Virus record (IMG/VR): IMGVR_UViG_2579778956_000001
Span: 1 to 24,208 of that record
DNA length: 24,208 bases
Source: a virus
Taxonomy: Duplodnaviria; Heunggongvirae; Uroviricota; Caudoviricetes
Reading direction: 5' to 3' (one strand)
Below the pieces are notes generated by a model. The model was not told the origin of the DNA. It ran no database searches and worked only from the letters and a program-made list of their open reading frames with translations. This document shows positions 1-23,921 of the stretch, piece by piece (the stretch's first letter is position 1; each line of letters starts with the position of its first letter). Position numbers and translations under genes: made by a program.

Positions 1-1053
1 TTACGGGGTAATGCCAACCGCTGCCGCCACTTTGTCGCCACTTGGCAGCGTTGCCAGAGGATTGAAACGGAGCGCCGTTTCCAGATGATCCGGTGCCAGA
101 TGTGCGTAACGCATAGTCATTTTTATATCGTGGTGTCCGAGAATTTTTTGTAAGGCCAGAATGTTTCCACCCGACATCATGAAGTGCGCCGCAAACGTAT
201 GGCGCAGAACGTGTGTGAGTTGACCGCGAGGGAGCACGATAGACGTTTTTTCCATCACGGATAAAAATTGAAAATAGCAGTCTGTGAAGAAATTGAACCC
301 ATCAAGCGCCATGATCTCTTCGTAAAGCTCTTTACTGATAGGGATGCTTCTGTTTTTCTTCCCCTTCGTTCTTACAAAGGTAATTCGGTATTTGGTCACC
401 TGTGAACGAGTAAGATTTACGGCTTCTCGCCAGCGTGCGCCTGTGCTTAAGCATATCTTAACTACCAGTGCCAGAATTGGGTCCTGACGTTTGCAATCAG
501 CCAGTAATTCAACAATCTGCTCATGGGTAAGCCATGCCATCTCTTTTTCTGCGATGGTGAATTTTCGCATGTTCTCCAGTGGGTTCGGATACGACCATTC
601 GCCCAGGCGGGATAGTTCGCTAAAAACACTACTTAGATAGCTTTGCTCCAGGTTAATGGTGACCGGGCTTGCTCCTTTCTTCCATTTCTCGCTGAAGTAG
701 ATCTCACCTGTCAGGCGTTTATCTCGATAGTGGGCAAACATTTTAGAGGTTAGATCAGTTGCAAGGGGATTGCCCAGAGCGTCAACCATCAGCAGCAATT
801 TGTCATAGACATGCTGCCCAGCTGTCAGTGATTTACCATGTAGTTTGAACCATAGCTCAACCACGTCTTTCAGTGTTCGACGATCCACTGATTCACCTAG
901 CCAGGGCTTTGCTTCGGTTTCTTCCATCGTGTGACGCTCAAAAGCCAGTGCTTCGCCTTTGGTGGCGAATTGTTTACGCACACGACGTCCACTACGTCCG
1001 GCGGGGTAACATTCGCAAAGCCATTTTCCTGTGGTGAGTTTTCGTACTGCCAT
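1..1053 (-). CDS. int: P2/186-family tyrosine integrase (site-specific recombinase)
   Basis: 350-aa ORF with the stop codon at window positions 1-3. Contains LSTGARWREA, FVRTKGKK, HVLRHTFAAHFMMSGG, LQKILGHHD and MRYAHL motifs typical of P2-type integrases (catalytic R..HxxR..Y). Sits at the prophage end next to the repressor, as in P2/186. Confidence 0.9.
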   Translation of the reverse strand: MAVRKLTTGKWLCECYPAGRSGRRVRKQFATKGEALAFERHTMEETEAKPWLGESVDRRTLKDVVELWFKLHGKSLTAGQHVYDKLLLMVDALGNPLATDLTSKMFAHYRDKRLTGEIYFSEKWKKGASPVTINLEQSYLSSVFSELSRLGEWSYPNPLENMRKFTIAEKEMAWLTHEQIVELLADCKRQDPILALVVKICLSTGARWREAVNLTRSQVTKYRITFVRTKGKKNRSIPISKELYEEIMALDGFNFFTDCYFQFLSVMEKTSIVLPRGQLTHVLRHTFAAHFMMSGGNILALQKILGHHDIKMTMRYAHLAPDHLETALRFNPLATLPSGDKVAAAVGITP

Positions 1054-1136: not shown

Positions 1137-2813
1137 CTAAGCAACATGTAGTTCATCGTTGGCGGAAGTGGCTGCTTTGCGTTCCTGCTCAATAGCTAGT
1201 GACTCTCTATATTCTTTCGCCTCTGCAAACATTGTCCAGTGGGCATTGATGTTCATATCTTCAATAACCGATTTAATTTCTTTAATATTTACGTTAAAAA
1301 ACTCTTTTCGTGAGTTAATTTTATTGACCTGCTTTTCGTTGAAGACTTTATGCAGATGATTTTCTAATGACGGTGCATCATCACTATAAATCATCGCATG
1401 AACATCGAACGAAAAAGGAACACTAGCATCCCCAAGTTCACGAACACGATCAAGTGGTTCAAGGCGGCGTGTCATTCCAATTTTATATACATCTTCGCCA
1501 AATGAGCCAATATTGCTAATTATATAAACATGGCCTGATCTAGTTTGTTGAGCCATAGAAATAGCTCGTTGGTTTTTAGCTTCAGCTTCTTCATATTTTA
1601 ACTGTAGTTCAGCTATTTTTTGCTCTAAAGCTAAGCGTTGTTCTTCATTTGCAAGCATAAGCTCTTTCGTTGCTTTATTTATAGCTTGCTGAATAGCTTT
1701 TTCTTCTTTTTCGGCTTCTTTTATCGCTTTTTCATACTCTCTACGAGCTCTTTCCTCTTCACGAAGCTGTTCTTTAATCCTTCTTTGCTCCTCTTTTTCT
1801 TCGAGCATAATTTCATTAACTGCAACTCCCCATTTTAGCTCGTTGAGTCGTGCCTGAAGATAGATGTCACTTATTTTTGCGGATCTAAAAGCAGAGCCAT
1901 TATAATTTACAAGTTGAAATGCATCTTTTATTTCTTGGGAAAGTTTTCCAAAATTGTTGTGTTTGACTTTTGATAAAATACTGTCAACTCTTCCATTGAA
2001 GGCATCCAAAACAAAGTTGATAGCAGTATTACGCCTGTTTTGCTCAACATAATCACACGAAGCTGCTTTATTAGTTTTTATTAATGATTTTGTTAACTCC
2101 CTGGCTTTTTGTAATTCCTTGCCTGCATCTGTAAACTCATAATTTTCTGCCAATTCATCAAGTACACTACGGTTAGGGATGATCCATTCATCGCCATAAC
2201 CTTCAATTTTATTTTTCATTGATTTGGCAACTGCTTCATATTTTTCTGCAAACTCTTTAGCTTCATATGCTGAACCAGCAATCTCTTTTGCTCTTTCTTC
2301 TGCATCGGAAATAATTTTTACTGCGTTGTCATTAGCATTTGAGATCAGCTCATTTGCTTTACTGTTGGCATTATCAAGACGTTCTTTGGCTTTCAGGCGT
2401 GCATCGCGAGCGTCTTTGGTGATTGCTATAGCTTCGCTATTAGCGTTGCTTATTGTTATCTGAGCTTGATAACTTGCTTCGTTTACTGTCTTAGCTGCCT
2501 TTATTTGGGCTTCTTCTATTTTTTGCCTAGCTATTGAGTCTGCATTTTTTATCTTATTCTCTGCCTCCATCACTGCGCTGTGCAATTCTTCGTATTGCCA
2601 TAATGGTGCTGCTCGCCCTTCAAGCTCTGATAGATCTCGTGCAGTCTGTGCTAACTTTTCTTGATTTTCACTCAGTTGGCTGGAAAGGGCTATGTTGTTA
2701 GCCGTCAGATTATCTATGGCGGCTTTGTGTTCTTTACTTTGCTTAAATAATATTATAGCTAGAACAGGGGCGAGAAATGCTAATAAGAATATAACGATGG
2801 AAAATGAATTCAT
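1137..2813 (-). CDS. Membrane-anchored coiled-coil protein with DUF4041 and C-terminal T5orf172 (GIY-YIG-like, MUG113) domains; candidate defence/abortive-infection moron
   Basis: 558-aa ORF. N-terminal hydrophobic helix (FSIVIFLLAFLAPVLAIILF), long E/K/A-rich coiled-coil region, and C-terminal GHVYIISN...YKIGMTRRLEPLDRVRELG...PFSFDV...LHKVF...REFF, which matches the T5orf172 pattern from memory. AT-rich relative to the phage backbone. Starts 20 nt after the cI stop with AAGGA as SD. Confidence 0.8.
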   Translation of the reverse strand: MNSFSIVIFLLAFLAPVLAIILFKQSKEHKAAIDNLTANNIALSSQLSENQEKLAQTARDLSELEGRAAPLWQYEELHSAVMEAENKIKNADSIARQKIEEAQIKAAKTVNEASYQAQITISNANSEAIAITKDARDARLKAKERLDNANSKANELISNANDNAVKIISDAEERAKEIAGSAYEAKEFAEKYEAVAKSMKNKIEGYGDEWIIPNRSVLDELAENYEFTDAGKELQKARELTKSLIKTNKAASCDYVEQNRRNTAINFVLDAFNGRVDSILSKVKHNNFGKLSQEIKDAFQLVNYNGSAFRSAKISDIYLQARLNELKWGVAVNEIMLEEKEEQRRIKEQLREEERARREYEKAIKEAEKEEKAIQQAINKATKELMLANEEQRLALEQKIAELQLKYEEAEAKNQRAISMAQQTRSGHVYIISNIGSFGEDVYKIGMTRRLEPLDRVRELGDASVPFSFDVHAMIYSDDAPSLENHLHKVFNEKQVNKINSRKEFFNVNIKEIKSVIEDMNINAHWTMFAEAKEYRESLAIEQERKAATSANDELHVA

Positions 2814-2833: not shown

Positions 2834-3430
2834 TCAATTTGAAACTATTGTACTTCTTATACAAGCAACCACTTCAATATCAGAAAATGCACATTCAAAG
2901 CTATTCTCTGTAGTTGTAATTTTAATCATACCTTTTGGAAGCTTTGTGATTTTTCGAATGGAATAGGTTCCGTCGATGTTGATTAACCAGTGTCCATCAA
3001 GTACTTCAGAAAATTTTTGATCACAAATGTATGTGACAAGCCCATCCTGAATAACAATTGGTGATGAAAGATTTGCAGGAAGAAATGATGAATCGAATAC
3101 ATATGAACCATCTTCAATCATTTTGCCTGCGGTAAGGCGAAACTTGGGAAGCTCTTCTGTGGCTACTGTCAGCGAGCTTTGCTTAAGTCCTTGCCCGGTG
3201 GTTAACCATTTCAGTGAGGTTCCTGTTTCAAGAGCACATTGGATTATCCAGTCTGCAGGAAACGTATCCCGCAAATACCTGTTCGCCAGAGTGCTTTTTG
3301 ATACTTCCAAGTGATCAGCTAAAGCCTGTCGTGTCGTAAAGCCATAAGCTTCGACTAATCGCTCAATCGCAGCCTTACCACCTTTATTGGGATTTATTTT
3401 GATCTCACTTGGGTACTTTGATGTTGACAT
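2834..3430 (-). CDS. cI: 186-type CI immunity repressor (N-terminal HTH, C-terminal oligomerisation domain)
   Basis: 198-aa ORF. N-terminal LVEAYGFTTRQALADHLEVSKSTLANRYLRD...ALETGTSLKWLTTGQG resembles the phage-186 CI HTH domain. Divergent from the apl/cII genes and adjacent to int. No LexA/S24-type Ala-Gly cleavage site or G-D-S-M motif seen. Confidence 0.75.
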   Translation of the reverse strand: MSTSKYPSEIKINPNKGGKAAIERLVEAYGFTTRQALADHLEVSKSTLANRYLRDTFPADWIIQCALETGTSLKWLTTGQGLKQSSLTVATEELPKFRLTAGKMIEDGSYVFDSSFLPANLSSPIVIQDGLVTYICDQKFSEVLDGHWLINIDGTYSIRKITKLPKGMIKITTTENSFECAFSDIEVVACIRSTIVSN

Positions 3431-5103: not shown

Positions 5104-5330
5104 TGGCTGATGCAATGGATCTCGTACAGCAGCGCGTTGAAGAAGAACGCCAACGCCATATCCGTGCTGCCCGTGCCAAAACGCCGGGCGTGTCCCGCGT
5201 GCTTTGCATTGAGTGTGAAGCGCCAATTCCGCCAGCACGCCGCCGTGCCATTCCGGGTGTGCAGCTTTGCATTACCTGTCAGGAAATCGCAGAGCTGAAA
5301 GGCAAACATTACAACGGAGGTGCTGTATGA
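5103..5330 (+). CDS. TraR/DksA-family C4 zinc-finger protein
   Basis: 75-aa ORF with CxxC...17 residues...CxxC (CIECEAPIPPARRRAIPGVQLCITCQ). Start overlaps the upstream stop (TAATG). This family commonly sits upstream of replication genes in P2-like phages. Confidence 0.7.
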   Translation: MADAMDLVQQRVEEERQRHIRAARAKTPGVSRVLCIECEAPIPPARRRAIPGVQLCITCQEIAELKGKHYNGGAV

Positions 5331-6184
5331 GCACCATCCTGAAATGGGCGGGAAATAAAACTGCCATAATGTCCGAACTGAAAAAACATCTTCCTGCTGG
5401 CCCGCGACTGGTTGAACCTTTCGCGGGTTCCTGTGCTGTGATGATGGAGACGGATTATCCCAGCTATCTGGTTGCGGATATTAATCCTGATTTAATCAAC
5501 CTCTATAAAAAGGTTGCCGCTGATTGTGAATCGTTTATATCTCGCGCCAGAGTTTTATTTGAGATCGCAAACAGGGAGGTGGCTTATTACAACATAAGGC
5601 AGGAGTTTAATTACTCAACTGAAATTACTGATTTCATGAAAGCGGTATATTTCCTGTATCTCAATCGTCACGGTTACCGTGGTTTATGTCGCTATAACAA
5701 GAGCGGGCATTTCAACATTCCCTACGGTAATTATAAAAATCCGTATTTTCCTGAAAAAGAAATTCGTGCATTTGCAGTAAAAGCCCAGCGGGCAACGTTT
5801 ATCTGCGCCAGCTTTGATGAAACGCTGGCGATGTTGAAGGCGGGGGATGTGGTGTATTGCGATCCGCCGTATGACGGTACGTTTTCCGGCTATCACACTG
5901 ACGGCTTCACTGAAGATGACCAGTATCACCTGGCATGTGTTCTTGAACATCGGTCATCAGAAGGACATCCGGTCATTGTTTCTAACAGTGACACATCCCT
6001 GATCCGTTCGCTGTATCGCAATTTTACTCACCACTACATCAAGGCAAAACGCAGCATCGGTGTGGCAGCTGGCGAGGGTAAATCAGCAACAGAAATCATT
6101 GCTGTTTCCGGGCCGCGCTGCTGGGTGGGATTTGATTATTCGCGTGGCGTGGATAGTTCTGCCGTGTACGGAGTACGTGCATGA
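5327..6184 (+). CDS. dam: Dam-family N6-adenine DNA methyltransferase (orphan, phage-encoded)
   Basis: Start at ATG 5327 (SD GGAGG 5315-5319; ATGA overlap with the TraR stop). ILKWAGNK near the N-terminus, [23 protein letters not shown] and the catalytic DPPY motif closely parallel E. coli Dam. No restriction gene adjacent. Confidence 0.9.
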
Positions 6185-8595
6185 GTCATGCCGATATGAA
6201 CAACTGCTGCGGCTTTAACGAAGCTGCCGCATCGTTCTCATGGAACAGCCCGAAAAAGGCCATTAACCCTTATCTGGACCCGGCGGAAGTTGCGCCGGTT
6301 TCTACGCTTTCAAACCTGATCACTCTGTACGCTGCCGATAACGAGCAGGAACAGCTGCGCCGCGAGGCACTGAGTGATCAGGTCTGGGAGCGTTATTTCT
6401 TTAATGAATCCCGTGATCCTGTCCAGCGCGAAATGGAGCAGGATAAGCTCATTAGCCGGGCAAAGCTGGCGCATGAGCAGCAGCGTTTTAATCCAGACAT
6501 GGTCATTCTGGCTGACGTCAACGCCCAGCCTTCCCATATCAGCAAGCCGCTGATGCAACGTATTGAATATTTCAGCAGCCTGGGCAGGCCAAAGGCTTAT
6601 TCCCGCTATTTGCGTGAGACGATTAAGCCATGTCTGGAACGACTGGAGCATGTCCGCGACTGTCAGCTATCCACTTCTTTTCGCTTTATGGCAAGCCATG
6701 AAGGGCTGGATGGCCTGCTTATCCTGCCTGAAATGAGTCAGGATCAGGTGAAGCGCCTGTCTACCCTTGTCGCTGCGCATATGAGCATGTGCCTTGATGC
6801 AGCTTGTGGCGATTTGTATGCCACCGATGATGTTAAGCCAGAAGAAATCCGCAAGACATGGGAAAAGGTGGCAGCAGAAACCCTGCGTCTGGATGTCATC
6901 CCGCCTGCGTTTGAGCAACTCCGTAGGAAAAGAAACCGCCGTAAACCAGTGCCCTATGAACTCATTCCGGGTTCGCTGGCGCGTATGCTGTGCGCCGACT
7001 GGTGGTATCGGAAATTGTGGAAGATGCGTTGCGAATGGCGGGAAGAGCAGTTGCGTGCTGTCTGCCTGGTCAGCAAAAAAGCATCTCCCTATGTCAGCTA
7101 TGAAGCCGTGATGCATAAACGTGAGCAGCGCCGTAAGTCGCTGGAGTTTTTCCGTTCTCATGAACTGGTGAACGAAGACGGCGACACGCTGGATATGGAA
7201 GATGTGGTAAACGCCAGTAGTAGCAACCCGGCGCATCGCCGCAATGAGATGATGGCATGTGTTAAAGGTCTGGAGCTTATCGCGGAAATGCGCGGTGACT
7301 GCGCCGTTTTCTACACCATCACCTGTCCGTCACGTTTCCATTCCACGCTAAATAACGGCAGGCCCAACCCGACCTGGACAAATGCGACGGTAAGACAAAG
7401 CAGTGATTATCTGGTCGGCATGTTTGCTGCATTTCGTAAGGCGATGCACAAAGCCGGATTGCGCTGGTATGGCGTGCGGGTGGCTGAGCCGCATCATGAC
7501 GGTACAGTTCACTGGCACCTGTTGTGTTTTATGCGCAAAAAAGATCGCCGCGCCATTACTGCTTTGTTGCGTAAGTTTGCCATTCGTGAAGACCGCGAGG
7601 AACTGGGTAATAACACAGGACCACGCTTTAAGTCTGAGTTGATTAACCCGCGCAAAGGTACGCCAACAAGCTACATCGCGAAATACATCAGTAAGAACAT
7701 TGACGGGTGTGGTCTGGCTGGCGAGATCAGCAAGGAAACGGGTAAATCCCTGCGTGATAACGCTGAATACGTTAATGCCTGGGCGTCTCTGCATCGTGTT
7801 CAGCAATTCCGCTTCTTTGGCATTCCGGGGCGTCAGGCTTACCGTGAACTGCGATTGCTGGCTGGTCAGGCGGCAAGGCAACAGGGGGACAAAAAAGCAG
7901 GTGCGCCGGTACTGGATAACCCGCGCCTTGATGCCATTCTGGCTGCTGCTGATGCTGGTTGTTTTGCCACCTACATCATGAAGCAGGGTGGCGTACTGGT
8001 TCCCCGCAAATATCACCTCATCAGAACTGCTTATGAAATCAACGAAGAGCCGACCGCCTATGGCGATCACGGCATTCGTATTTATGGCATCTGGTCACCT
8101 ATTGCAGAGGGCAAGATCTGCACTCATGCCGTGAAGTGGAAAATGGTTCGTAAGGCCGTTGACGTTCAGGAGGCGGCAGCCGACCAGGGCGCTTGCGCCC
8201 CTTGGACTCGTGGCAATAACTGTCCCCTTGCTGAAAATTTGTACCAACAAGGGAAAGACAAATCAGCTGATGGAGATACCAGAACGGATATCACCCGCAT
8301 GGATGACAAGGAGTTGCACGATTACCTGCACAGTATGAGCAAAAAAGAGCGCCGGGAACTGGCAGCAAGGTTACGCCTGGTGAAACCGAAACGGCGTAAA
8401 GACTACAAACAACGAATTACAGACCATCAGCGACTGCAGCTCGTGTATGAACTGAAGTCCAGGGGATTTGATGGCAGCGAGAAAGAGGTCGATTTACTGC
8501 TTCGCGGCGGCAGTATTCCGTCAGGAGCAGGCCTGCGTATCTTCTATCGGAACCAGCGTTTGCAGGAAGATGATAAGTGGCGAAACCTGTATTAA
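6181..8595 (+). CDS. A: Replication initiation protein gpA (rolling-circle replication endonuclease, HUH family)
   Basis: 804-aa ORF. HUH-like VHWHLLCF and twin-tyrosine SYIAKYISK motifs. ATGA overlap with the dam stop. Size and position match P2 gene A. Confidence 0.9.
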
Positions 8596-8687
8596 TTACG
8601 CGGGTTAACAATTCGTGCTCTTAATAATACCAGGCATATCAGGGTGATGAGCGTAAAAAAACGTTTTACATCAGTAAGATTATTATA

Positions 8688-8707
8688 TACTGTAAATATA
8701 AACAGTG
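8688..8707. promoter_or_regulatory. LexA (SOS) box overlapping a putative promoter upstream of the small ORF at 8748
   Basis: taCTGTaaatataaACAGtg (CTGT 8690-8693, 8-nt AT-rich spacer, ACAG 8702-8705) matches the consensus CTGT-N8-ACAG. Embedded in an AT-rich region with a TTTACA -35-like hexamer upstream, and about 45 bp before an ORF with a strong SD (AGGAGG 8738-8743). Confidence 0.6.
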
Positions 8708-8747
8708 GTTATGTATACAGTATTGCTTTGGTGTCATAGGAGGAAAG

Positions 8748-8936
8748 ATGCAGGACTATTTTTTGGAGTCTTTGAAGCTCCAGCGCATTGATTTTTTTCT
8801 TAAGCTTGTAGCGGCTAGTGAGTGTAGTGATGAAGAGAAGGGGCTGGCTCTGCAGTGGGTTTCAGAGCTGACTGATGAGTTGATGGCGAAAATTCGTGCC
8901 CATGAATATAACCGTGTAATGGATCTTCCCGGTTAG
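8748..8936 (+). CDS. Small hypothetical protein under putative LexA control (possible antirepressor-like or SOS-induced factor)
   Basis: 62-aa ORF with strong SD AGGAGG and an upstream LexA box. Position corresponds to the 186 tum / P2 tin-old region downstream of gene A. No confident homology recognised. Confidence 0.5.
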   Translation: MQDYFLESLKLQRIDFFLKLVAASECSDEEKGLALQWVSELTDELMAKIRAHEYNRVMDLPG

Positions 8937-8949
8937 CAGCAGGGGCGTT

Positions 8950-8980
8950 GCTGGCGTGAGAACTAGATTCTCGCGTCAGC
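8950..8980 (+). other. Long imperfect palindrome / RNA hairpin downstream of the small ORF
   Basis: GCTGGCGTGAGAA (8950-8962), 5-nt loop, TTCTCGCGTCAGC (8968-8980): a 13-bp stem with two G-U wobbles in RNA. No U-tract follows, so not a canonical terminator. Confidence 0.35.
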
Positions 8981-9106
8981 AAGGTCAACTAAGGATTGAA
9001 ACAGAAAGCCCTTGAAAACAGTAGCAAGTTGCCTATTATCTACGCTGTATTTAATCGATGTCATTGGCTGTAATACCTTAAGTGATATTGAAAGGCGGTG
9101 TGGGGA

Positions 9107-10267
9107 ATGGATCTGGCTAAAGTTGAAGAACGCGTCCGAAGAGTCATAGGGACAATGGAGTCTGCCGAGCTTGATGAATATTTTTGGGGTAAGCGCTCGG
9201 GTTTGGGAGACTCATTACCTCCGTATTATCTCGTTTATTTTCTTTTGGTAGATTTACTGAAATTTAAAAATCGTGGGGTTGATGAGAAGATTTCTTTTTC
9301 TATCCCAGTCCGGATTGATGGGACTGTCGTAATTATAGAACATCGTAAACTTGGTTTAGATATATTTATCAAGAGTGATGATGATATAGAGCAAGCTAAA
9401 ACTGTTTTGAGACATATTTGCGCAGGGGTTAAAGCTGCTACGAAATTTTTTGACTCGCTTGCAGACAATGCAGCAAAGACTTCAAATCTAAATGTTAATA
9501 ACAATGCTAATTCTCTTTATGATAGGTTTTGCTATTTTTTAGAGCTATATAAACAGAAGCTTGATGAAGTTGCTGCTGGCCAAGAGTCTAAACTGGAAGT
9601 TGATAGTGAGTTTAAGTCTGATAATTTTTTCAGCCTGTTACAATCCACTTTTGAACAATCAAATAAGATAATTGAACTCCGAAGAGAGGCTATGTGGTTA
9701 GCAACGTCTGCAATTGAGTCATTTTTCAATTGGACCGAGCATGTTTTCATTCTTATTGCAATCTTGAAGGGTGAGATAAAAAATGGGAATGATGTGGCTG
9801 ATAAAGTTGGGAAAGAATGGGGGGAGAAATTCAAATTAGCCATTGATATTAACTCTTCCAGTCTAAAATCATTCTATGATCGTTTACTTATACTCAGAAA
9901 ACAGGTGCGTAATTTTGTAGCCCATGGCGCCTTCGGTAAGGATGGGCAAGCATTGGAATTTCACTCAAGTGTAGGGGCTGTGCCACTATTGCTGCCTCAT
10001 CGAGAAAATAAAGAACGTTTCAAGTTTGGAAATGGTGTGCATTTTTTGGCACCTGAAGCAATGCAATTAATTAACGATTTTCTTGAAAATTTGTGGCAGG
10101 GAGAACTGTCCCCAGCAAAAATTTATATTGAATCTGGATGTCCTTTAATACTATCTTACGTAACTAATGGAACCTATGCGGAGGCGATGAAATCAGAAAG
10201 GAATATGGACTTATTGGTTAATTACTTAACTCGTGAGATGGATAATGCCGCAAACATGGATTGGTAA
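9107..10267 (+). CDS. Hypothetical protein with HEPN-like R-N-x3-H motif (candidate RNase-type defence/abortive-infection effector)
   Basis: ORF with ATG at 9107 (alternative GTG at 9098; SD-like AAGG at 9092-9095, about 11 nt upstream). AT-rich codon usage. Contains LRKQVRNFVAHG, which fits the HEPN consensus R-[NSH]-x3-H. No other domain recognised. Lies in the gpA-Q hotspot. Confidence 0.65.
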   Translation: MDLAKVEERVRRVIGTMESAELDEYFWGKRSGLGDSLPPYYLVYFLLVDLLKFKNRGVDEKISFSIPVRIDGTVVIIEHRKLGLDIFIKSDDDIEQAKTVLRHICAGVKAATKFFDSLADNAAKTSNLNVNNNANSLYDRFCYFLELYKQKLDEVAAGQESKLEVDSEFKSDNFFSLLQSTFEQSNKIIELRREAMWLATSAIESFFNWTEHVFILIAILKGEIKNGNDVADKVGKEWGEKFKLAIDINSSSLKSFYDRLLILRKQVRNFVAHGAFGKDGQALEFHSSVGAVPLLLPHRENKERFKFGNGVHFLAPEAMQLINDFLENLWQGELSPAKIYIESGCPLILSYVTNGTYAEAMKSERNMDLLVNYLTREMDNAANMDW

Positions 10268-10594
10268 ACTCTAGGTGCGGGTTACAAACACACAAAAAAT
10301 CTTCCTGAGTTAGGTGTTATCCCAACCCAAGGCTGTGTCAGGAAAACTTCATATGGCGCATGAGATCGCATGATAGTATGACGATCGTTTTCGCTGATGC
10401 CAGCCTGAGCTGGCGGGCTGTTGCATATGTCATGCAGGCGCATGAAAACCACTGCATAAAGCGGGTAGGCGTGGCGGGGATACGAGCGCGCGCTTGTGGC
10501 TTTGAATACTCAAATCATGTAATGTTAATTGTCCAAGCTCAGATGTTATTTTAGAATCGTAGTTCACTAGAACTGTGTTAATTGGGAAGTATTC

Positions 10595-11845
10595 ATGGAT
10601 AAACAACGTGCTTCACAAGTTTTTGTGCCTGGCGGTATGCCGAAATTGACTTATGTTGAGCGCTCTGAAGGAGAGGTTCATGGAAAACTGGAGAGTGCTA
10701 AAGATAATTTATGTAAGTTAGTGACTTTAACTGGGCAAACAAAGTCTGGTAAGACTGTAATTACAAGAATGGTATTCCCAGTCATGGACGATGATGTTGT
10801 ATGGATTGACGGTGGGAGTATTACAACTGAAGATGATATTTGGGAGCAGGTATTAGAAAAACTAAATGGCTACCATAGTATTGAAGTTAATTCTGGAGAA
10901 AATAGTGCTATTGCAGTTAGTGGTAAGGTATCGGGGACCGCAAGTGCATTCGTTGTTAAAGGTACAGGTGAGGCTGGTTTAGTTCAGACGGATGGAAAGT
11001 CAAATGGTAATAAAAAATCGCGAACGATATCCGCAAAAAGTTCTGCACTAAAAGTTCTCTCTCAAACCAAGTCTAGTCTTATAATTGATGACTTTCATTA
11101 CCTTGATCGTGACCTACAAGGTAACTTTATTAGAGCGATAAAACCATTAGTTTTTGATGGAGTACCAGTTGTACTGATAGCCATTCCACATCGAAGATAT
11201 GATGCTGTAAAAGTTGAAAAAGAAATTACCGGACGGCTAGAAAATATTTCCATGCCTTCGTGGGAAATGGATGAACTAAAACAAATAGCAAAAGTGGGAT
11301 TTCCTCTGTTAAACATGGAAGTTAGTGATTCAGTAATTGATAAAATTGCCAATGAATCATTGGGAAGCCCTCATTTAATGCAAGAGTTTTGCAAGGCTAT
11401 ATGCTTAGCAAATAATGTTAAAGAAACTTTGCCGAGTAAGTTAGTTATTAATTCTTTAGATGATGATATTTTTAGAAAGGTTGCAGAATCCACTGGGAAA
11501 ATAGTATTTGATAAGTTAGCTAGTGGCCCTAATCAGCGAACTGACAGAATTCCTAGAAAACTGAAAAGTGGTGAGGAAGTAGATATATATAAAGTTGTAT
11601 TATATGCATTGTCACATATGAAACCAGGAATGCAAAGTATTCAGTATGAGGAGTTAAGATCAGCCATACGCGAACTGGTGCAAGATGCTCCTCCACAAGC
11701 TCATGAGGTTACTCGTGTTATAGAAAAAATGGCTAAAATAGCTGCTACGGAAGAAGCTTCAACTCCTGTAATAGATTGGGATAAGGAGGACCGAAAGTTG
11801 CATATTACTGATCCATTTTTTGCTTTTTATCTAAAATGGCGATAA
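10595..11845 (+). CDS. P-loop NTPase (Walker A/B ATPase), candidate defence-system ATPase
   Basis: 416-aa ORF with SD GGGAAG upstream. Walker A LTGQTKSGKT (about residue 45) and Walker B-like hhhhDD (SLIIDDFHYLD). AT-rich. No nuclease (Toprim/HNH) motif recognised, so not an obvious Old/Gabija-type protein. Confidence 0.8.
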   Translation: MDKQRASQVFVPGGMPKLTYVERSEGEVHGKLESAKDNLCKLVTLTGQTKSGKTVITRMVFPVMDDDVVWIDGGSITTEDDIWEQVLEKLNGYHSIEVNSGENSAIAVSGKVSGTASAFVVKGTGEAGLVQTDGKSNGNKKSRTISAKSSALKVLSQTKSSLIIDDFHYLDRDLQGNFIRAIKPLVFDGVPVVLIAIPHRRYDAVKVEKEITGRLENISMPSWEMDELKQIAKVGFPLLNMEVSDSVIDKIANESLGSPHLMQEFCKAICLANNVKETLPSKLVINSLDDDIFRKVAESTGKIVFDKLASGPNQRTDRIPRKLKSGEEVDIYKVVLYALSHMKPGMQSIQYEELRSAIRELVQDAPPQAHEVTRVIEKMAKIAATEEASTPVIDWDKEDRKLHITDPFFAFYLKWR

Positions 11846-11852
11846 AGGTTCT

Positions 11853-11871
11853 GGCTGCCAAACTGGCAGCC
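11853..11871. terminator. GC-rich hairpin between the convergent ATPase gene (+) and portal gene (-); putative bidirectional terminator
   Basis: GGCTGCC (11853-11859), loop AAACT, GGCAGCC (11865-11871). Located in the 32-bp gap between two convergent stop codons. Flanking T/A runs are weak. Confidence 0.45.
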
Positions 11872-11877
11872 TTAAAG

Positions 11878-12915
11878 CTAATTTGAATGAAGTTTATATT
11901 CTTCGAACTGTATCACTTTTTCTTTTAACCAAACATTTAACTCTTCAAATCTTTTTTGCAATGGTATTAGTTCATTGCGTACAAATACATTACTTGCCTT
12001 CTCCACATCCCCAAACCCCCCAACATTATTTGGCATTATCCCCATCATCTGTGGCGGCACGCGGTGTGCCGCCATCATGTCATCGCGACTAACATTTTTG
12101 ATATTCAGAAATTCATCCTTCGCTGCGACTTCTGACAACGGGATAATCTGAAGTCCGTCTTTTTTACCATTAGGCGAGTACATAAACAGATTGCGGAAGT
12201 TACCCGGACCTTTGGCGCTTTTCATTGCGTTGCGGAGGTTGTTCACATCCTCCTGGTTCTGCGCGGCATCGGTCATGTACATGATGAAGCCGGCATGACT
12301 GCCGTTAATGTAATACTTGCGGCGGAACAGCGTGGCGGACTCGTTGAGCAAAGCGGATGGGATGGCAGAAAGATAGCCGGGCAGGCCGTAGATCTCCTGG
12401 TTGATGTCCGGTTCCATCAGATGAAAAATGCTGCCTTTCGTGAACTGATACGGCTGGGTTGTCATACCGTATTGCACAAACCAGTAGGTATCCAGGTCTA
12501 ACCCGCGTCGGGTGTATTTTGCCAGCGCAGGCTCAAGGGCGATAACTTCACCGAATCGGTTCGTGCGTTTCTCCAGGTAGGCGTTACCAAATACCAGATA
12601 GTCCTGTACAAAACGCGAAAAAGCCTGTTGGCTGAGCAGCGGATGAGGGATATAGGTACTGGTCAGAATGTTGCACTTTACTGCAATCGGGGAACTGTGA
12701 TGCACGGCAGCCCGGAAGGTGCGCGCCAGTCCGTCAAAACTTACGGGTGGCTCGTACCAACACTCCATCTGTACGCATTCCACATAGTCCAGCAGTTCGC
12801 GGCGGTCCAGAACAGGAACGGGATCACCGAAGCTGAATGCTTCGGCTGAAGTCTGGCTTTTATGCTGGATCTGTTTCGTCGACGCAGCGCGGTTCTTCTT
12901 ACTCTTTCCCATCAA
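11878..12915 (-). CDS. Q: Portal vertex protein gpQ
   Basis: 345-aa ORF; size and position (upstream of and translationally coupled to the terminase gene) match P2 gene Q. Start overlaps the terminase stop. Confidence 0.85.
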   Translation of the reverse strand: MMGKSKKNRAASTKQIQHKSQTSAEAFSFGDPVPVLDRRELLDYVECVQMECWYEPPVSFDGLARTFRAAVHHSSPIAVKCNILTSTYIPHPLLSQQAFSRFVQDYLVFGNAYLEKRTNRFGEVIALEPALAKYTRRGLDLDTYWFVQYGMTTQPYQFTKGSIFHLMEPDINQEIYGLPGYLSAIPSALLNESATLFRRKYYINGSHAGFIMYMTDAAQNQEDVNNLRNAMKSAKGPGNFRNLFMYSPNGKKDGLQIIPLSEVAAKDEFLNIKNVSRDDMMAAHRVPPQMMGIMPNNVGGFGDVEKASNVFVRNELIPLQKRFEELNVWLKEKVIQFEEYKLHSN

Positions 12916-14678
12916 AAAATCTCCACAATATTGCTGGTATTGGCGGACTCGCCCTGCAGCGGTTCGTTAAACAGTGCGTGCATTGTTGCCCAGGCCAGAT
13001 CGGCATGGCTGGCTTCTTCGCTGCGGCTGGCTTCATAGGTCGGGCGGTTGCCACTGGCAGTGGTAGCGCGACGGATTGCCATAAATGACTGCGCAATGTC
13101 GGTGTGCCCGGCGTCAAACTCCAGACGGCGGTGGCTGATAATGTCGTAGGCCTTGAGTACCAGGGCGTTTTTAACATTGGGGTTGTAGACAAACTCCCGG
13201 ACGGCAGGAAAGAACGCTTTCACGTTCTCATAAACCCCGTGACCAACGCCGGTTGAGTCGATACCGATATAGGTCACGTTGTACTGTTCGGTCAGTTTTT
13301 TGATGGCGTCAGCCTGGGCGCGGAAGTCCATCCCGCGCCACTGGTGACGCTCAAGAATGCGGAACTTACCACCAGGCACGGCTGGCGGTGCCACCACCAC
13401 GCATCCGGCGCTGTCGCCGTTTTGCGTACCTTTTGCCGGGTCATAACCGATCCACACTTCGCGCCAGCCAAACGGGCGCAGAGCCAGTGCATGAAAGTCG
13501 GTCCAGACTTCCCAGCTGTCCACCATGCACGCCTGCAGCTCGCTGAGCGGAAATACGGACGCGAGATCGTCCACAAACTCGCACATCAGCAGGTTCTGGT
13601 ATTCGTCCGGGCTGTACTCCATGCGCAACTGGTCAAGGTCGAACAGGTTACAGCCGCCGCGCACCGCATCTTCCACGGTGACTATCTGGCGGTATTGCCC
13701 GTCTGCGCACAGCAGGCCGGGGGCCAGATTGCTGTGGGACAGGTCGATGTCCACCTTGTCGGCCTTGTTGCGCCCACGGTTGAACAGCGCACCGGACCAG
13801 AACGGATAAGCACTGTGTGTCAGGCTGGATGGCGTGGAAAAATAGGTTTGTCGCCATTTTTTGTGAATAGCCATACCGGAAGCCACTTTGCGCAGCTCCT
13901 GGAATTTCGGTATCCAGAAATATTCATCCAGATACAGGTTGCCGTGATAACTCTGGGCCGTGCGGGCATTGGTGCCGAGGAAGTAAAGCGTGGCCCCGTT
14001 AGGAAGCACCATCGGATCGCCTTTCAACTCCACCCCCACTTCTTTGGCGAAGTCGATGATGTACTGCTTAAAGACGTGGGCCTGTGCCTTGCTGGCGGAA
14101 AGGAAAATCTGGTTACGTCCGGTAAGCAGGGCGTCAATCAGGGCTTCACGGGCAAAGTAAAAGGTCGCGCCGATCTGGCGTGACTTCAGCAGGTTGCGGA
14201 TGCGGTTGGTTTTTCCGGCTTCCCACCAGTGGCGCTGGTAGTTGAACATGGAGGAATGGAAGATTTCTTCCAGCTTCTCAATCTGCTCATCGGTGAAAAC
14301 ATTCTTTTCCGGCTGACGGCGTGGGCCTTTATTGCGGTTGGCGACGTTAGGGTTTAAGTCGGCTTCGTTGCCGCCATTGTTAAACTTGCCGATCCGCGCG
14401 TGGCGCTCCGACTGGCGCGCCAGCAGGTCAATCTCTTTGAAATCTTTCCCTTCTTTGTGCTCCTTCATGATGAGCTGGCAGTAGCGTGCGGCGGTGGTGA
14501 GCTGCATCTGATCCAGCGGCCCATAGTCACCCCACTTGTCGCGTTTTTTCCAGCTGTGAACGGTTGCAACTTTCTCGCCCAGCATTTCAGCAATGCGGGC
14601 TACGCGGTATCCCTGAAAGTACAGCAGCATGGCCTGCCGACGGGGATCGAGATCTGCGGGTGTCAGTGTGGTGTTCAT
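12912..14678 (-). CDS. P: Terminase large (ATPase) subunit gpP
   Basis: 588-aa ORF (P2 gpP is about 590 aa), divergent from the scaffold gene O, with the Q gene immediately downstream in the same orientation. Confidence 0.9.
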   Translation of the reverse strand: MNTTLTPADLDPRRQAMLLYFQGYRVARIAEMLGEKVATVHSWKKRDKWGDYGPLDQMQLTTAARYCQLIMKEHKEGKDFKEIDLLARQSERHARIGKFNNGGNEADLNPNVANRNKGPRRQPEKNVFTDEQIEKLEEIFHSSMFNYQRHWWEAGKTNRIRNLLKSRQIGATFYFAREALIDALLTGRNQIFLSASKAQAHVFKQYIIDFAKEVGVELKGDPMVLPNGATLYFLGTNARTAQSYHGNLYLDEYFWIPKFQELRKVASGMAIHKKWRQTYFSTPSSLTHSAYPFWSGALFNRGRNKADKVDIDLSHSNLAPGLLCADGQYRQIVTVEDAVRGGCNLFDLDQLRMEYSPDEYQNLLMCEFVDDLASVFPLSELQACMVDSWEVWTDFHALALRPFGWREVWIGYDPAKGTQNGDSAGCVVVAPPAVPGGKFRILERHQWRGMDFRAQADAIKKLTEQYNVTYIGIDSTGVGHGVYENVKAFFPAVREFVYNPNVKNALVLKAYDIISHRRLEFDAGHTDIAQSFMAIRRATTASGNRPTYEASRSEEASHADLAWATMHALFNEPLQGESANTSNIVEIF

Positions 14679-14820: not shown

Positions 14821-15459
14821 ATGACAGTGAAAGCAAAGCGTTTTCGCATCGGGGTGGAAGGTGCCACCACCGACGGACGCGAAATCCAGCGTGAATGGCT
14901 GGAACAGATGGCAGCCAGCTACAACCCGGCGGTGTATACCGCGCTGATTAACCTTGAGCACATCAAGTCTTATCTGCCGGACAGCACCTTTAACCGCTAC
15001 GGCAAGGTGACGGCGCTGTTTGCTGAAGAAATCAAGGAAGGTCCGCTGGCAGGCAAGATGGCGCTGTATGCCGACGTTGAGCCAACGGAGTCCCTGGTGG
15101 AACTGGTGAAAAAAGGCCAGAAATTATTCACATCTATGGAAGTTAGCCCGAAGTTCGCTGATACGGGCAAAGCCTACCTGGTCGGCCTGGCTGCCACTGA
15201 TGACCCTGCCAGTCTGGGCACTGAAATGCTGACATTCAGCGCCAGTGCAGCCCATAACCCGCTGGCAAACCGCAAGCAGAATCCCGCCAATCTTTTTACC
15301 GCTGCAGAGGAAACGGTGATCGAACTGGAAGAAATCCAGGATGACAAACCGTCCCTGTTTGCCCGTGTCACGGCGCTGTTCACCAAAAAAGAGCAGTCCG
15401 ATGACGCCCGGTTCTCTGATGTGCATAAGGCCGTGGAACAACTGGCAGGGGATCGTTGA
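14821..15459 (+). CDS. O: Capsid scaffolding protein gpO, C-terminally truncated at a deletion junction (likely nonfunctional)
   Basis: 212-aa ORF with an N-terminus of gpO type (FRIGVEGATTDGREI...YLVGLAATDDPASLGTE). P2 gpO is about 284 aa as I recall. The ORF ends in a short non-homologous tail (QLAGDR*) exactly where tail-tube homology begins in another frame. Confidence 0.75.
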   Translation: MTVKAKRFRIGVEGATTDGREIQREWLEQMAASYNPAVYTALINLEHIKSYLPDSTFNRYGKVTALFAEEIKEGPLAGKMALYADVEPTESLVELVKKGQKLFTSMEVSPKFADTGKAYLVGLAATDDPASLGTEMLTFSASAAHNPLANRKQNPANLFTAAEETVIELEEIQDDKPSLFARVTALFTKKEQSDDARFSDVHKAVEQLAGDR

Positions 15460-15904
15460 GTCGCTGACGCTGCCGAAATTTACCCGCAAATATGAGAAGT
15501 ATCGCGGCGGCGGAATGCCGGGTGCGGTGGATGTGGATCTGGGGCTTGATGACAGTGCGCTGGACACAGAATTTTCCATTGGTGGTACTGAATTGCTGCT
15601 GTTTAAACAGATGGGTAAAGCCACGGTGGATGGCATCCAGCTGCGCTTTACCGGCTCTATTCAGCGTGACGATACCGGGGAAGTGCAGGCCGTGGAGCTT
15701 GTCGTGCGTGGACGTCACAAAGAAGTGGATTCCGGCGAGTGGAAGACGGGCGAAAGCAACACCACCAAAGTGACCAGTACCAACAGCTACGCGAAGCTGA
15801 CCATCAATGGTGAGGTGCTCTATGAAGTGGACCTTATCAACATGGTGGAAATTGTGGACGGTGTGGACCTGATGGAAGCGCACCGCAACGCCCTCGGCCT
15901 CTGA
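15446..15904 (+). pseudogene. FII: Tail tube protein FII, 5'-truncated fragment fused downstream of gpO
   Basis: Frame of ORF 15341..15904. Homology to the P2 major tail tube protein begins about at QGIVESLTLPKFTRKYEKYRGGGMPGAVDVDLGLDD and runs to the C-terminus (...EAHRNALGL). About 25 N-terminal residues and any start codon/SD are missing; the upstream part of the ORF overlaps gpO out of frame. Confidence 0.7.
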
Positions 15905-21588: not shown

Positions 21589-23274
21589 TTATCCTAATCC
21601 TGGCCATACCATGACGATGATTGTCCCTGCCAGCGTCAGCAGGACGTTGGCGATTGCATAGGTGCCCGCATAGCCCAGCGCCGGGATGTTACTGCGAGCT
21701 GTATCACTGATGATCTCCATTGCCGGCGCGCAGGTACGTGCGCCCATCATTGCGCCGAACAACAGTGCGCGGTTCATTCGCAATACATAAGCACCGAACA
21801 AGAAACAGATAACCACGGGCACCAGACTGACAATCAATCCGGCAATCAACATCTGACCGCCAATCGCGCCCAGGCCGTTATTAATACCGCTACCGGCGCT
21901 CAGACCAACGCCTGCCATAAACACCATCAAGCCGAACTCTTTCACCATGCTTAATGCACCTTGCGGAATGTAACCGAAGGTCGGGTGGTTAGCACGCATA
22001 AAGCCCAGCATAATTCCGGCGAATAACAACCCGGCAGCGTTCCCCATGCCGAAACTGAATGTGCTGAACTGGAAGGTGATCATCCCGATCATCAGCCCAA
22101 TAACAAAGAAGGCGCAAAATGCCAGCAGGTCAGTGACCTGGCTGTGAATCGAGATAAAGCCGATGCGATCGGCGATGGTTTTTACGCGACGGGCATCACC
22201 GCTGACTTGTAAAACGTCACCTTTGTTAAGCACGACGTTGTCATCTATCGGCATCTCAATCTGGCTACGAATGACGCGGTTAAGGAAGCAACCGTGATCG
22301 GTCAACTTCAGTTGTGCGAGACGTTTACCTACAGCGTTATGGTTTTTAACGACCACTTCTTCAGTGACGATACGCATGTCGAGAAGGTCACGATCGAAAA
22401 CTTCTTTACCGTTACGGAAGCTGGGATCGAGTCGGGCATGGGCGTCGGGATAGCCTACCAACGCTATTTCATCGCCCATTTGTAGCACGGCATCACCGTC
22501 TGGATTTGCCAGAATCCCGTTACGTCGAATACGTTCAATGTAGCAGCCGGTTTGTCGATAAATACCCAGTTCACGCAGATTTTTGCCGTCGGTCCAGGCC
22601 ACCAGCTCCGGGCCGACGCGATAGGCGCGGATCACCGGTAAATAAACCTTACGGTTGGCATCAGTGTCCAGGCCACGTTCGCGGGCGATTTGCTGGGCGC
22701 TGGTCTGTAAGTCCTGATGCTGCAATTTCGGCAAGTAACGCGCACCAACAATCAAACTCACCAGACCGATTAAATAGGTTAAGGCATACCCGAGGCTCAG
22801 ATTATCCAGTGCCAGTGAGAGCTGCCTGCTTTCCATGCCGGAATGACGCAGTGTATCGCCAGCACCGACCAGAACCGGTGTCGACGTCATAGAGCCTGCT
22901 AACATACCGGCCGTCAGGCCAATATCCCAGCCAAACAGCTTACCTAACCCTAAGGCGATCACCAGCGCACTGCCAACCATCACCAGTGCTAACATTAGGT
23001 AATTTTTCCCATCGCGAAAAAAAATGGAAAAAAAGTTCGGTCCGGCTTCGACCCCGACGCAGAAAATAAACAGCATAAAGCCAAGATTAAGCGCATCGGT
23101 GTTAATGCTGAAATGTTGTTGGCCTAATAACAGCGATACGACTAAAACGCCAATGGAATTACCCAGTTGGATCGAACCAAGTCGTAACTTTCCGAGACAT
23201 AGCCCAAGCGCGAGGACCACAAATAATAACAGAATGTAATTCCCATTTAACAATTCGGCGACGTTTATATTCAC
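21589..23274 (-). CDS. ybjL: Putative AAE-family transport protein YbjL (host chromosomal gene)
   Basis: 561-aa polytopic membrane protein with central TrkA-C-like soluble domains. N-terminus [38 protein letters not shown] matches E. coli YbjL as I recall. Confidence 0.9.
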
Positions 23275-23543: not shown

Positions 23544-23921
23544 GTGAAACATAAACAACGTTGGGCGGGGGCAATCTGCTGTTTTGTCCTCTTCATTGTG
23601 GTGTGCCTTTTTCTGGCGACGCACATGAAAGGCGCTTTTCGGGCTGCCGGGCATCCTGAAATCGGCTTGCTATTTTTCATTCTTCCTGGAGCAGTGGCCA
23701 GCTTCTTTTCACAGCGTAGAGAAGTCCTGAAACCTCTGTTTGGCGCAATGCTGGCGGCACCCTGTTCGATGCTCATTATGCGGCTGTTTTTTTCACCGAC
23801 GCGCTCATTCTGGCAAGAGCTGGCATGGTTACTAAGCGCGGTGTTCTGGTGTGCGCTGGGGGCACTGTGTTTCTTATTTATCAGTAGTTTGTTTAAACCA
23901 CAGCACAGAAAAAATCAGTAA
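23544..23921 (+). CDS. ybjM: Inner membrane protein YbjM (host gene)
   Basis: 125-aa hydrophobic protein; GTG start behind SD AGGAGG (23533-23538). Conserved neighbour of ybjL and grxA. Confidence 0.85.
   Translation: MKHKQRWAGAICCFVLFIVVCLFLATHMKGAFRAAGHPEIGLLFFILPGAVASFFSQRREVLKPLFGAMLAAPCSMLIMRLFFSPTRSFWQELAWLLSAVFWCALGALCFLFISSLFKPQHRKNQ

Follow-up and report, generated by a model that had tools for sequence, protein, structure and literature searches.

A HEPN protein from a P2-like prophage hotspot is a candidate single-protein abortive-infection ribonuclease

Introduction

HEPN domains normally dimerise, two Rx4-6H motifs then making up one metal-independent ribonuclease (RNase) site (PMC3710099). 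Solo HEPN proteins (HepS, ApeA and DARNA) have lately come to form a major class of abortive-infection effectors that do their own sensing, with a trigger that is different in each. Their non-catalytic domains or insertions keep the site closed until an infection cue is received (PMC13043305; bioRxiv 10.64898/2026.01.26.701840; 10.64898/2026.02.22.705581). Here we describe a gene of a P2-like prophage, located on the forward strand at positions 9107 to 10267 of a 24,208-nucleotide stretch of viral DNA (IMG/VR record IMGVR_UViG_2579778956_000001, positions 1 to 24,208; hereafter the window), whose product is predicted to carry a C-terminal HEPN domain. We refer to them as the HEPN gene and the HEPN protein.

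The best functional analogy for the HEPN protein is HepS of the Salmonella prophage Gifsy-1, which is presumed to be off by default, senses infection itself and cleaves transfer RNA (tRNA) anticodon loops (PMC13043305). Both are prophage-encoded, with one HEPN domain, a canonical Rx4-6H motif and no partner or inhibitor gene. HepS carries its motif at R100-H105 and has no described counterpart of the separate 125-amino-acid (aa) N-terminal domain of the HEPN protein. Its gene belongs to a lambdoid prophage and its trigger is a siphovirus tail-tip protein, whereas the HEPN gene lies in a P2-like prophage. The HEPN protein has no detectable sequence similarity to any PDB chain.

ApeA (Gao et al. 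2020; PF18739) resembles the HEPN protein in being a single gene product with one or more non-catalytic N-terminal domains and a C-terminal HEPN domain, and is a deoxydinucleotide-activated tRNA anticodon nuclease (bioRxiv 10.64898/2026.01.26.701840). At about 580 aa, with a catenin-like N-terminal and a PafA-like Mid domain, it is larger than the HEPN protein, which has 386 aa and one small alpha/beta N-domain; in Ec2ApeA the N-terminal, Mid and split HEPN domains span residues 1-198, 199-309 and 335-583 (bioRxiv 10.64898/2026.01.26.701840). UniRef names one Thalassospira homolog of the HEPN protein "Apea-like HEPN domain-containing protein". Because a match to the Pfam family HEPN_Apea could not be reproduced, we take this name as a hint of HEPN membership only: ten family members, that homolog among them, gave no HEPN_Apea hit at E≤10, the window protein gave none at E≤1, and the family is absent from the 25 commonest Pfam families among 114 members at E≤1. 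The PADLOC ApeA model likewise gave no hit for the window protein at E≤1. Membership in ApeA was rejected, as there is no profile match and the three-domain architecture of about 580 aa is not present.

DARNA (PD-T7-3) of E. coli is, like the protein as proposed here, a HEPN defence made of a single protein that works through abortive infection. Besides its tRNA anticodon nuclease activity it has a second, non-catalytic domain for sensing and is switched on by single-stranded DNA that the phage single-stranded DNA-binding protein presents (bioRxiv 10.64898/2026.02.22.705581). Its domain order is reversed: the 456-aa protein, a dodecamer, has an N-terminal HEPN domain (R117x4H122) and a Pds5-like C-terminal domain, whereas the HEPN domain of our protein is C-terminal, and the PADLOC PD-T7-3 model did not match the latter. 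In AbiA of Lactococcus (PMC11077055) a HEPN domain with an Rx6H motif is fused to a reverse-transcriptase-like polymerase. The HEPN protein has an Rx4H motif and no polymerase; neither Pfam nor the AlphaFold2 model revealed a reverse-transcriptase domain, and the likeness to AbiA is confined to the HEPN domain. Finally, the HepT/MNT (DUF86) type VII toxin-antitoxin (TA) systems (PDB 5yep, 7ae2, 8xdj) comprise toxins of about 130 aa that are always accompanied by an MNT antitoxin. The HEPN protein is three times the size of HepT and has no conserved neighbour.

The anti-phage cargo of P2 hotspots, as described in two experimental studies (Rousset 2022, Vassallo 2022; PMC9122126, PMC9519451), includes old, tin, PARIS and PD-T4/PD-T7/PD-Lambda genes, whose protein families are unrelated to the HEPN protein. 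The HEPN gene shares with this cargo the same gpA-gpQ locus, a low-GC (guanine plus cytosine) signature and modular replacement between near-identical prophages. The HEPN-focused passages of those studies and the searched passages of PMC13586616 do not describe the HEPN protein. A literature search with the RefSeq accession of its E. coli counterpart, WP_032248694.1, gave no match, and no paper naming the protein was found. By profile and sequence, size and domain order, the HEPN protein represents a family distinct from HepS, ApeA and DARNA. The lack of an MNT or RNA antitoxin separates it from the HepT and AbiF types. Its effector and its genomic niche are both of familiar kinds, but the family is undescribed and the sensor-like N-terminal domain unassigned.

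The HEPN gene and its conserved motif

The HEPN gene is a complete open reading frame (ORF) of 1161 nt that runs from an ATG at 9107 to a TAA at 10265-10267 and encodes 386 aa. The initial annotation of this interval had reported 389 aa; the intact frame stands, but that length is reached only from an upstream GTG at 9098. The ATG is favoured because homolog N-termini align with MDLAKVEE and because RefSeq annotates an identical start in 10 E. coli genomes (WP_032248694.1). The window gene and the E. coli genes for WP_032248694.1, themselves labelled "hypothetical protein", share 99.4-99.6% DNA identity.

The protein contains a single Rx4-6H motif, situated 68-71% along its length within LRKQVRNFVAHG (residues 263-274, nt 9893-9928). 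This predicted catalytic motif, R268-N269-F-V-A-H273 (9908-9925, forward strand), begins with R268 at 9908-9910 and ends with H273 at 9923-9925; it is of the Rx4H form, with a polar N after the R, and an invariant G274 comes next. The initial annotation had read the motif as a HEPN RNase signature while cautioning that a single short motif is weak evidence. The caution was sound: among 20,000 composition-preserving shuffles of the protein, any Rx4-6H appeared in 63%, R[NHQD]x3H in 5.3% and RNx3H in 1.8%. The motif is nonetheless placed above chance by its conservation, since R268, N269, H273 and G274 are invariant in each of three alignments, of 34, 114 and 16 sequences, the last of which includes a subfamily of only 20-25% identity. 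With R, N and H unchanged down to that level of divergence and a HEPN fold predicted for the protein (see below), the original interpretation of the motif is supported.

Only 13 columns are invariant in the 16-sequence alignment: G83, N132, E211, W238, K241, L260, R268, N269, H273, G274, P293, M384 and D385. E211 (9737-9739, forward strand), an acidic residue in a W-T-E-H segment of the inferred helix-2, is also invariant in the other two alignments and is a candidate second active-site residue. HEPN families commonly have a conserved acidic residue, typically as Ex3[KR], in helix-2 near the motif (PMC3710099). The extreme C-terminal tail N-M-D-W (residues 383-386, 10253-10264, forward strand) is conserved across the family, with W or F at the last position; even with the subfamily of 20-25% identity, every sequence keeps M384 and D385, and at least 90% keep N383. 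This tail is possibly a latch or an oligomerisation peg, and lies in the last block of the AlphaFold2 model, where confidence is lower.

Predicted structure

An AlphaFold2 single-chain model built from the 114-sequence alignment was confident overall (mean pLDDT 89.8, pTM 0.83). In this model residues 1-125 (9107-9481, forward strand) form an N-terminal alpha/beta domain composed of helices 3-14 and 40-50, a three-stranded sheet (64-70, 73-80 and 83-88) and helices within 91-124. Its conserved residues are G57, E60, K61, K81 and G83, and it is a candidate sensor or oligomerisation domain. Residues 126-386 (9482-10264, forward strand) are modelled as a HEPN domain with insertions, in which the inferred core helices are H1 (134-167) and H2 (174-220), both very long, H3 (251-273) and H4 (315-343). 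A helical insert at 227-245 lies between H2 and H3, a beta-hairpin at 284-293 follows the motif, and C-terminal helices occupy 349-382. The motif is placed at the C-terminal end of helix 251-273, and R268-N-F-V-A-H273 thereby conforms to the HEPN positional rule of an Rx4-6H motif, with a polar residue after the R, at the end of helix-3 (Anantharaman et al. 2013; PMC3710099). The layout of the model as a whole also agrees with published accounts of HEPN.

In structure comparison, the closest match of the HEPN domain was the HEPN domain of AbiA (PDB 8oz7). Further matches, with scores in brackets, were HI0074 (8.2), the HepT SO_3166 (8.2), an AMPylated HEPN toxin (7.9), YutE (7.7), AF0298 (7.5), SsR10 (7.3), the HEPN toxin 7ae2 (6.9), the HEPN protein 4nqf (6.9), TTHA0636 and TT1696 (6.8 each), the C-domain of kanamycin nucleotidyltransferase (6.8), the HEPN domain of sacsin (6.7), Csx1 (6.6) and Csm6 (6.5), with Las1, MtlR and Roquin lower in the list. 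On the basis of the model, residues ~126-386 very probably adopt a HEPN fold, and the helical fold anticipated from the motif is present in the predicted monomer. The N-terminal domain had no convincing PDB neighbour in the structure comparison. An N-terminal region without annotation had previously been put at about 260 aa; a domain without an assigned fold does exist there, but its size is about 125 aa, because the HEPN domain with its insertions takes up about 260 residues.

Beyond the motif, the protein had been described as lacking any other recognisable domain, and this is correct as far as the profile libraries go (Pfam at threshold, PADLOC, PHROGs, NCBIfam and PDB sequences). Identification by a curated HEPN sequence profile failed, with nothing above threshold in any of these. 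The sole Pfam signal was a sub-threshold match to Csx1_HEPN at residues 219-279 (E 0.04; 14.7 bits versus a cutoff of 23). No match to PDB sequences was obtained by phmmer with the single protein or by hmmsearch with the 114-sequence profile.

Family distribution and genomic neighbours

A search of 5.8 billion clustered proteins (90% clustering) returned 1245 relatives, nearly all of them full-length proteins of about 375-400 aa. They carry no Pfam domain, and those with a name are without exception called "hypothetical". In an exhaustive profile search of 1.84 billion representatives at 50% identity, 1013 proteins were found at E≤0.001, 349 of them at E≤1e-30. The family comprises about 1000 clusters at 50% identity and spans more than 10 phyla. 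A tblastn search against phage GenBank records found no homolog.

To place the family in its genomic context, one genome per species was surveyed for 185,579 species, yielding 238 stretches that encode a relative, from which 80 loci were retrieved. These loci belong to Alpha-, Beta-, Gamma- and Zetaproteobacteria as well as Nitrospirota, Acidobacteriota, Bacteroidota, Chlorobiota, Chloroflexota, Cyanobacteria, Verrucomicrobiota, Actinobacteriota, Desulfobacterota and Saccharibacteria. When the four neighbouring ORFs of at least 70 aa on either side were clustered across these loci, no family occurred in more than four loci and none held a fixed position. Small ORFs (25-110 aa) within 500 bp showed no conservation except between near-identical genomes. 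In the 80 loci, these two clusterings revealed no conserved partner or antitoxin gene beyond closely related genomes. An MNT nucleotidyltransferase was found neither in the window nor among the recurrent neighbour families. Nor did the flanks show any sign of an RNA antitoxin or a structured RNA: Rfam gave no match at E≤1 in 8500-12000, and neither tandem repeats nor a tandem-repeat RNA antitoxin array of the type III TA or AbiF-like kind were found beside the HEPN gene (8600-10650).

The families that recur in a set of 149 neighbouring ORFs belong to mobile elements and to defence or TA systems; they are RES-Xre, HEPN_Apea, Gabija GajA/GajB, type I restriction-modification, DRT reverse transcriptase, AbiEi, integrases and resolvases, and a type IV secretion system (T4SS) coupling protein. 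Three neighbour ORFs within two genes of a family member, in loci L009-L073, match Pfam HEPN_Apea (best E 1.5e-11), so that members of this family sometimes have distinct HEPN defence genes beside them. In Thalassospira the family gene lies in a conjugative-element region directly past hipBA, 2 nt after the hipA stop codon. The region of the Thalassospira indica homolog (P0299, locus L005, 7436-8590) also has genes for a T4SS coupling protein, PIN_4 and a QueC-like/M78 peptidase. Plastoroseomonas and Bacterioplanes each carry the family gene as a single insertion surrounded by housekeeping genes. Single-gene defence or toxin cargo typically shows such a pattern: rare, patchy, horizontally mobile and without partners.

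The P2 hotspot

The HEPN gene lies between a P2 gpA-type replication endonuclease gene on its left (6181-8595, forward strand) and a P2 gpQ-type portal gene on its right (11878-12915, reverse strand; Pfam Phage_portal), both assigned from the annotation of syntenic E. coli prophages. Its position is that of the P2 hotspot, and the E. coli prophages share the synteny. The gpA-portal interval is the classical old/tin locus, and the two experimental studies demonstrated that it is an anti-phage hotspot (PMC9122126, PMC9519451). A further study found such loci to be swapped extremely fast, and most of the loci of unknown function tested in the analogous P4 hotspot to protect (PMC13586616, 2026). 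In the window, GC content is 0.37-0.41 over the two cargo genes of this interval, versus 0.52-0.58 in the adjacent core genes.

The second cargo gene encodes a 416-aa P-loop ATPase (10595-11845, forward strand; PADLOC candidate system PDC-S59 1.2e-31, Pfam AAA_22, phrog_6841; Walker A GQTKSGKT). Across 5426 complete E. coli genomes the flanks match in 1252 and the HEPN gene is found in only 10, always on the chromosome. Downstream of the HEPN gene, the four loci examined carry three different modules: the P-loop ATPase in the window, a 557-aa protein in strain 1283, and a 355-aa protein, a STAS-like protein and a 162-aa protein in L725 and 2014C-3097. Among otherwise similar prophages, the cargo of this hotspot is variable and exchanged in modules. 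Conversely, E. coli UMNF18 has the ATPase module without the HEPN gene. Because each gene occurs without the other, the HEPN gene is a module of its own, and the idea that it forms a two-gene system with the PDC-S59 ATPase downstream of it was rejected.

Proposed function and competing explanations

We favour the reading that the HEPN gene is a self-contained single-protein abortive-infection RNase defence, carried as exchangeable cargo between gpA and gpQ, and consider it marginally probable as a whole. Taken by themselves, catalytic activity of the protein as an RNase is likely, and an anti-phage role is moderately likely. In the proposed mechanism, two HEPN domains would dimerise and R268-N269-x3-H273, probably aided by E211, would make up a metal-independent RNase site at their interface. 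In uninfected cells the enzyme would be held inactive by the N-terminal domain, by the H2-H3 and H3-H4 insertions and perhaps by the NMDW tail, until an infection cue opens the R268/H273 site, by analogy with HepS, ApeA and DARNA. The active enzyme would then cut host and/or phage RNA, for example tRNA, and translation would stop before progeny release. Solo HEPN defences most often target tRNA anticodon loops. We also suggest, tentatively and with some doubt, that the HEPN protein may be the founding member of a broad one-protein immune family, in which a new alpha/beta sensor of about 125 aa gates a HEPN RNase in response to a cue unlike those of HepS, ApeA and DARNA, with NMDW possibly acting as a latch.

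Several results count against a HEPN RNase defence. The evidence for the fold is a predicted monomer, and Foldseek with the full-length model against the PDB returned nothing significant, only coiled-coil noise. PADLOC v2, NCBIfam r20 and PHROGs have no match to the protein, and the Csx1_HEPN signal was found in one of the 114 family members. E211 is followed by H-V-F-I, and the usual Ex3[KR] context is absent. Many homologs are in ordinary chromosomal contexts without recognisable defence neighbours. Lastly, the HEPN domain of AbiA keeps its Rx6H motif, has no RNase activity in vitro and serves dimerisation (PMC11077055), so that a HEPN fold with its motif is not proof of catalysis.

The AbiA precedent raises the explanation that the HEPN domain lacks catalysis and acts as a scaffold for dimerisation or nucleic-acid binding, with any biological activity, in defence or elsewhere, arising from the conserved N-terminal domain or from RNA/DNA binding or sequestration. 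We regard this as unlikely: R, N, H, G and E211 are strictly invariant to 20-25% identity, as is typical of catalytic residues, whereas the motif has usually decayed in HEPN families that are no longer catalytic (PMC3710099), and the N-terminal domain matches no known enzyme by Pfam or structure comparison. A more radical objection is that R-N-x3-H is a chance string in a helical non-HEPN protein, as might be argued from the shuffles, from the failure of sequence profiles to recognise the family and from the coiled-coil noise in the full-length Foldseek search. Against the conservation of the motif and the predicted fold, we give this explanation almost no credence.

Two further explanations both seem improbable to us. 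The protein could be the toxin of a TA module, serving mainly prophage addiction or stabilisation, with an unrecognised antitoxin that is a small protein, RNA or modifying enzyme encoded elsewhere. Minimal HEPN toxins of the HepT/MNT type are indeed among the top structural matches, the Thalassospira gene follows hipA by 2 nt in a conjugative-element region with other TA genes, and RES-Xre and AbiEi modules occur among the neighbours. Yet the 80 loci show no conserved adjacent ORF in either size class and no MNT-type recurrent neighbour, the flanks have no type III-like tandem repeats or Rfam match, and a protein of 386 aa with an extra conserved domain resembles self-regulated solo effectors more than 130-aa HepT toxins. 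Alternatively, the role could lie outside immunity, in a service to prophage or host such as RNA processing, lysogeny regulation or counter-defence against other elements, the hotspot position then reflecting tolerance of cargo. P2 hotspots do hold non-defence genes as well, with DinI-like and other accessory genes at this same locus; several homologs adjoin housekeeping genes (queuosine biosynthesis, ABC transporters); and machine-learning predictors call only 15-32% of unknown P2 hotspot proteins antiviral (PMC13586616). However, patchy, multi-phylum, low-frequency spread with rapid module swapping is typical of defence cargo, prophage solo HEPN proteins tested so far are defence effectors, and no conserved association with any housekeeping pathway was seen in the 80 loci.

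Should the abortive-infection RNase reading be confirmed, HEPN defence would gain a new sensor module, and about a thousand protein clusters would no longer lack an annotation. The family follows the same effector logic as HepS, ApeA and DARNA with an N-terminal domain that has no recognisable relative, and it has been missed by PADLOC, Pfam, PHROGs and NCBIfam, yet spans Enterobacteria to Chloroflexota and Saccharibacteria. To a specialist, one more HEPN gene in a P2 hotspot will come as no surprise; the family is still large, unannotated, cleanly predicted and testable in E. coli. More generally, un-annotated genes of the gpA-gpQ hotspot can be given a specific, falsifiable function through structure prediction.

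Other features of the prophage

A sigma-70-like promoter candidate (TTGAAA-16-TATTAT, 10/12) is located at 9012-9039 on the forward strand, 68 nt upstream of the ATG of the HEPN gene. It is weak evidence; promoter-like sites in the HEPN gene region show no excess, with nine found and 8.8 expected from shuffles. Upstream of the gene lies a conserved P2 ORF of 62 aa (8748-8936, forward strand; phrog_698, E 5e-36) with a faint, sub-threshold likeness to MafI immunity proteins (E 0.037). Since prophages without the HEPN gene also have this ORF (WP_001154428.1 / WP_001154431.1), it is no partner of that gene.

Between the two cargo genes, at about 10352-10495, is a non-coding and relatively GC-rich stretch of about 140 bp. 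Matches of 80-90% identity occur in 632 of the 5426 E. coli genomes, mostly unannotated and inside P2-type hotspots, and in P2-like phages of Klebsiella and Salmonella the matching sequence ends at this stretch. It may be a conserved joint for cassette exchange.

At the left end of the window, the P2-like prophage begins with an integrase gene (1-1053, reverse strand), followed by a gene for a 558-aa protein that is a strong homolog of PD-Lambda-1 (1137-2813, reverse strand; PADLOC 7e-120, Pfam T5orf172/MUG113 and DUF4041), a CI repressor gene (2834-3430, reverse strand) and a Dam-like methylase gene (5267-6184). PD-Lambda-1 is a validated defence gene. Its homolog sits in a low-GC stretch (0.36-0.39) between integrase and CI repressor, a second defence cargo site of the prophage.

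To the right of the portal gene, a terminase gene (12912-14678, reverse strand) is followed by a region in which the prophage looks defective (14821-15904). The scaffold gene gpO is shortened to 212 aa (profile positions 2-207 of 268) and leads into a tail-tube FII gene whose start corresponds to profile position 14. Missing from between the two are the expected genes for the major capsid, terminase small subunit, head completion, lysis, baseplate, tail-fibre and sheath. The distance from the integrase to the host genes, a ybjL-like permease (21589-23274) and ybjM (23544-23921), is only about 21 kb. The prophage has thus undergone deletion while its defence cargo has been kept.

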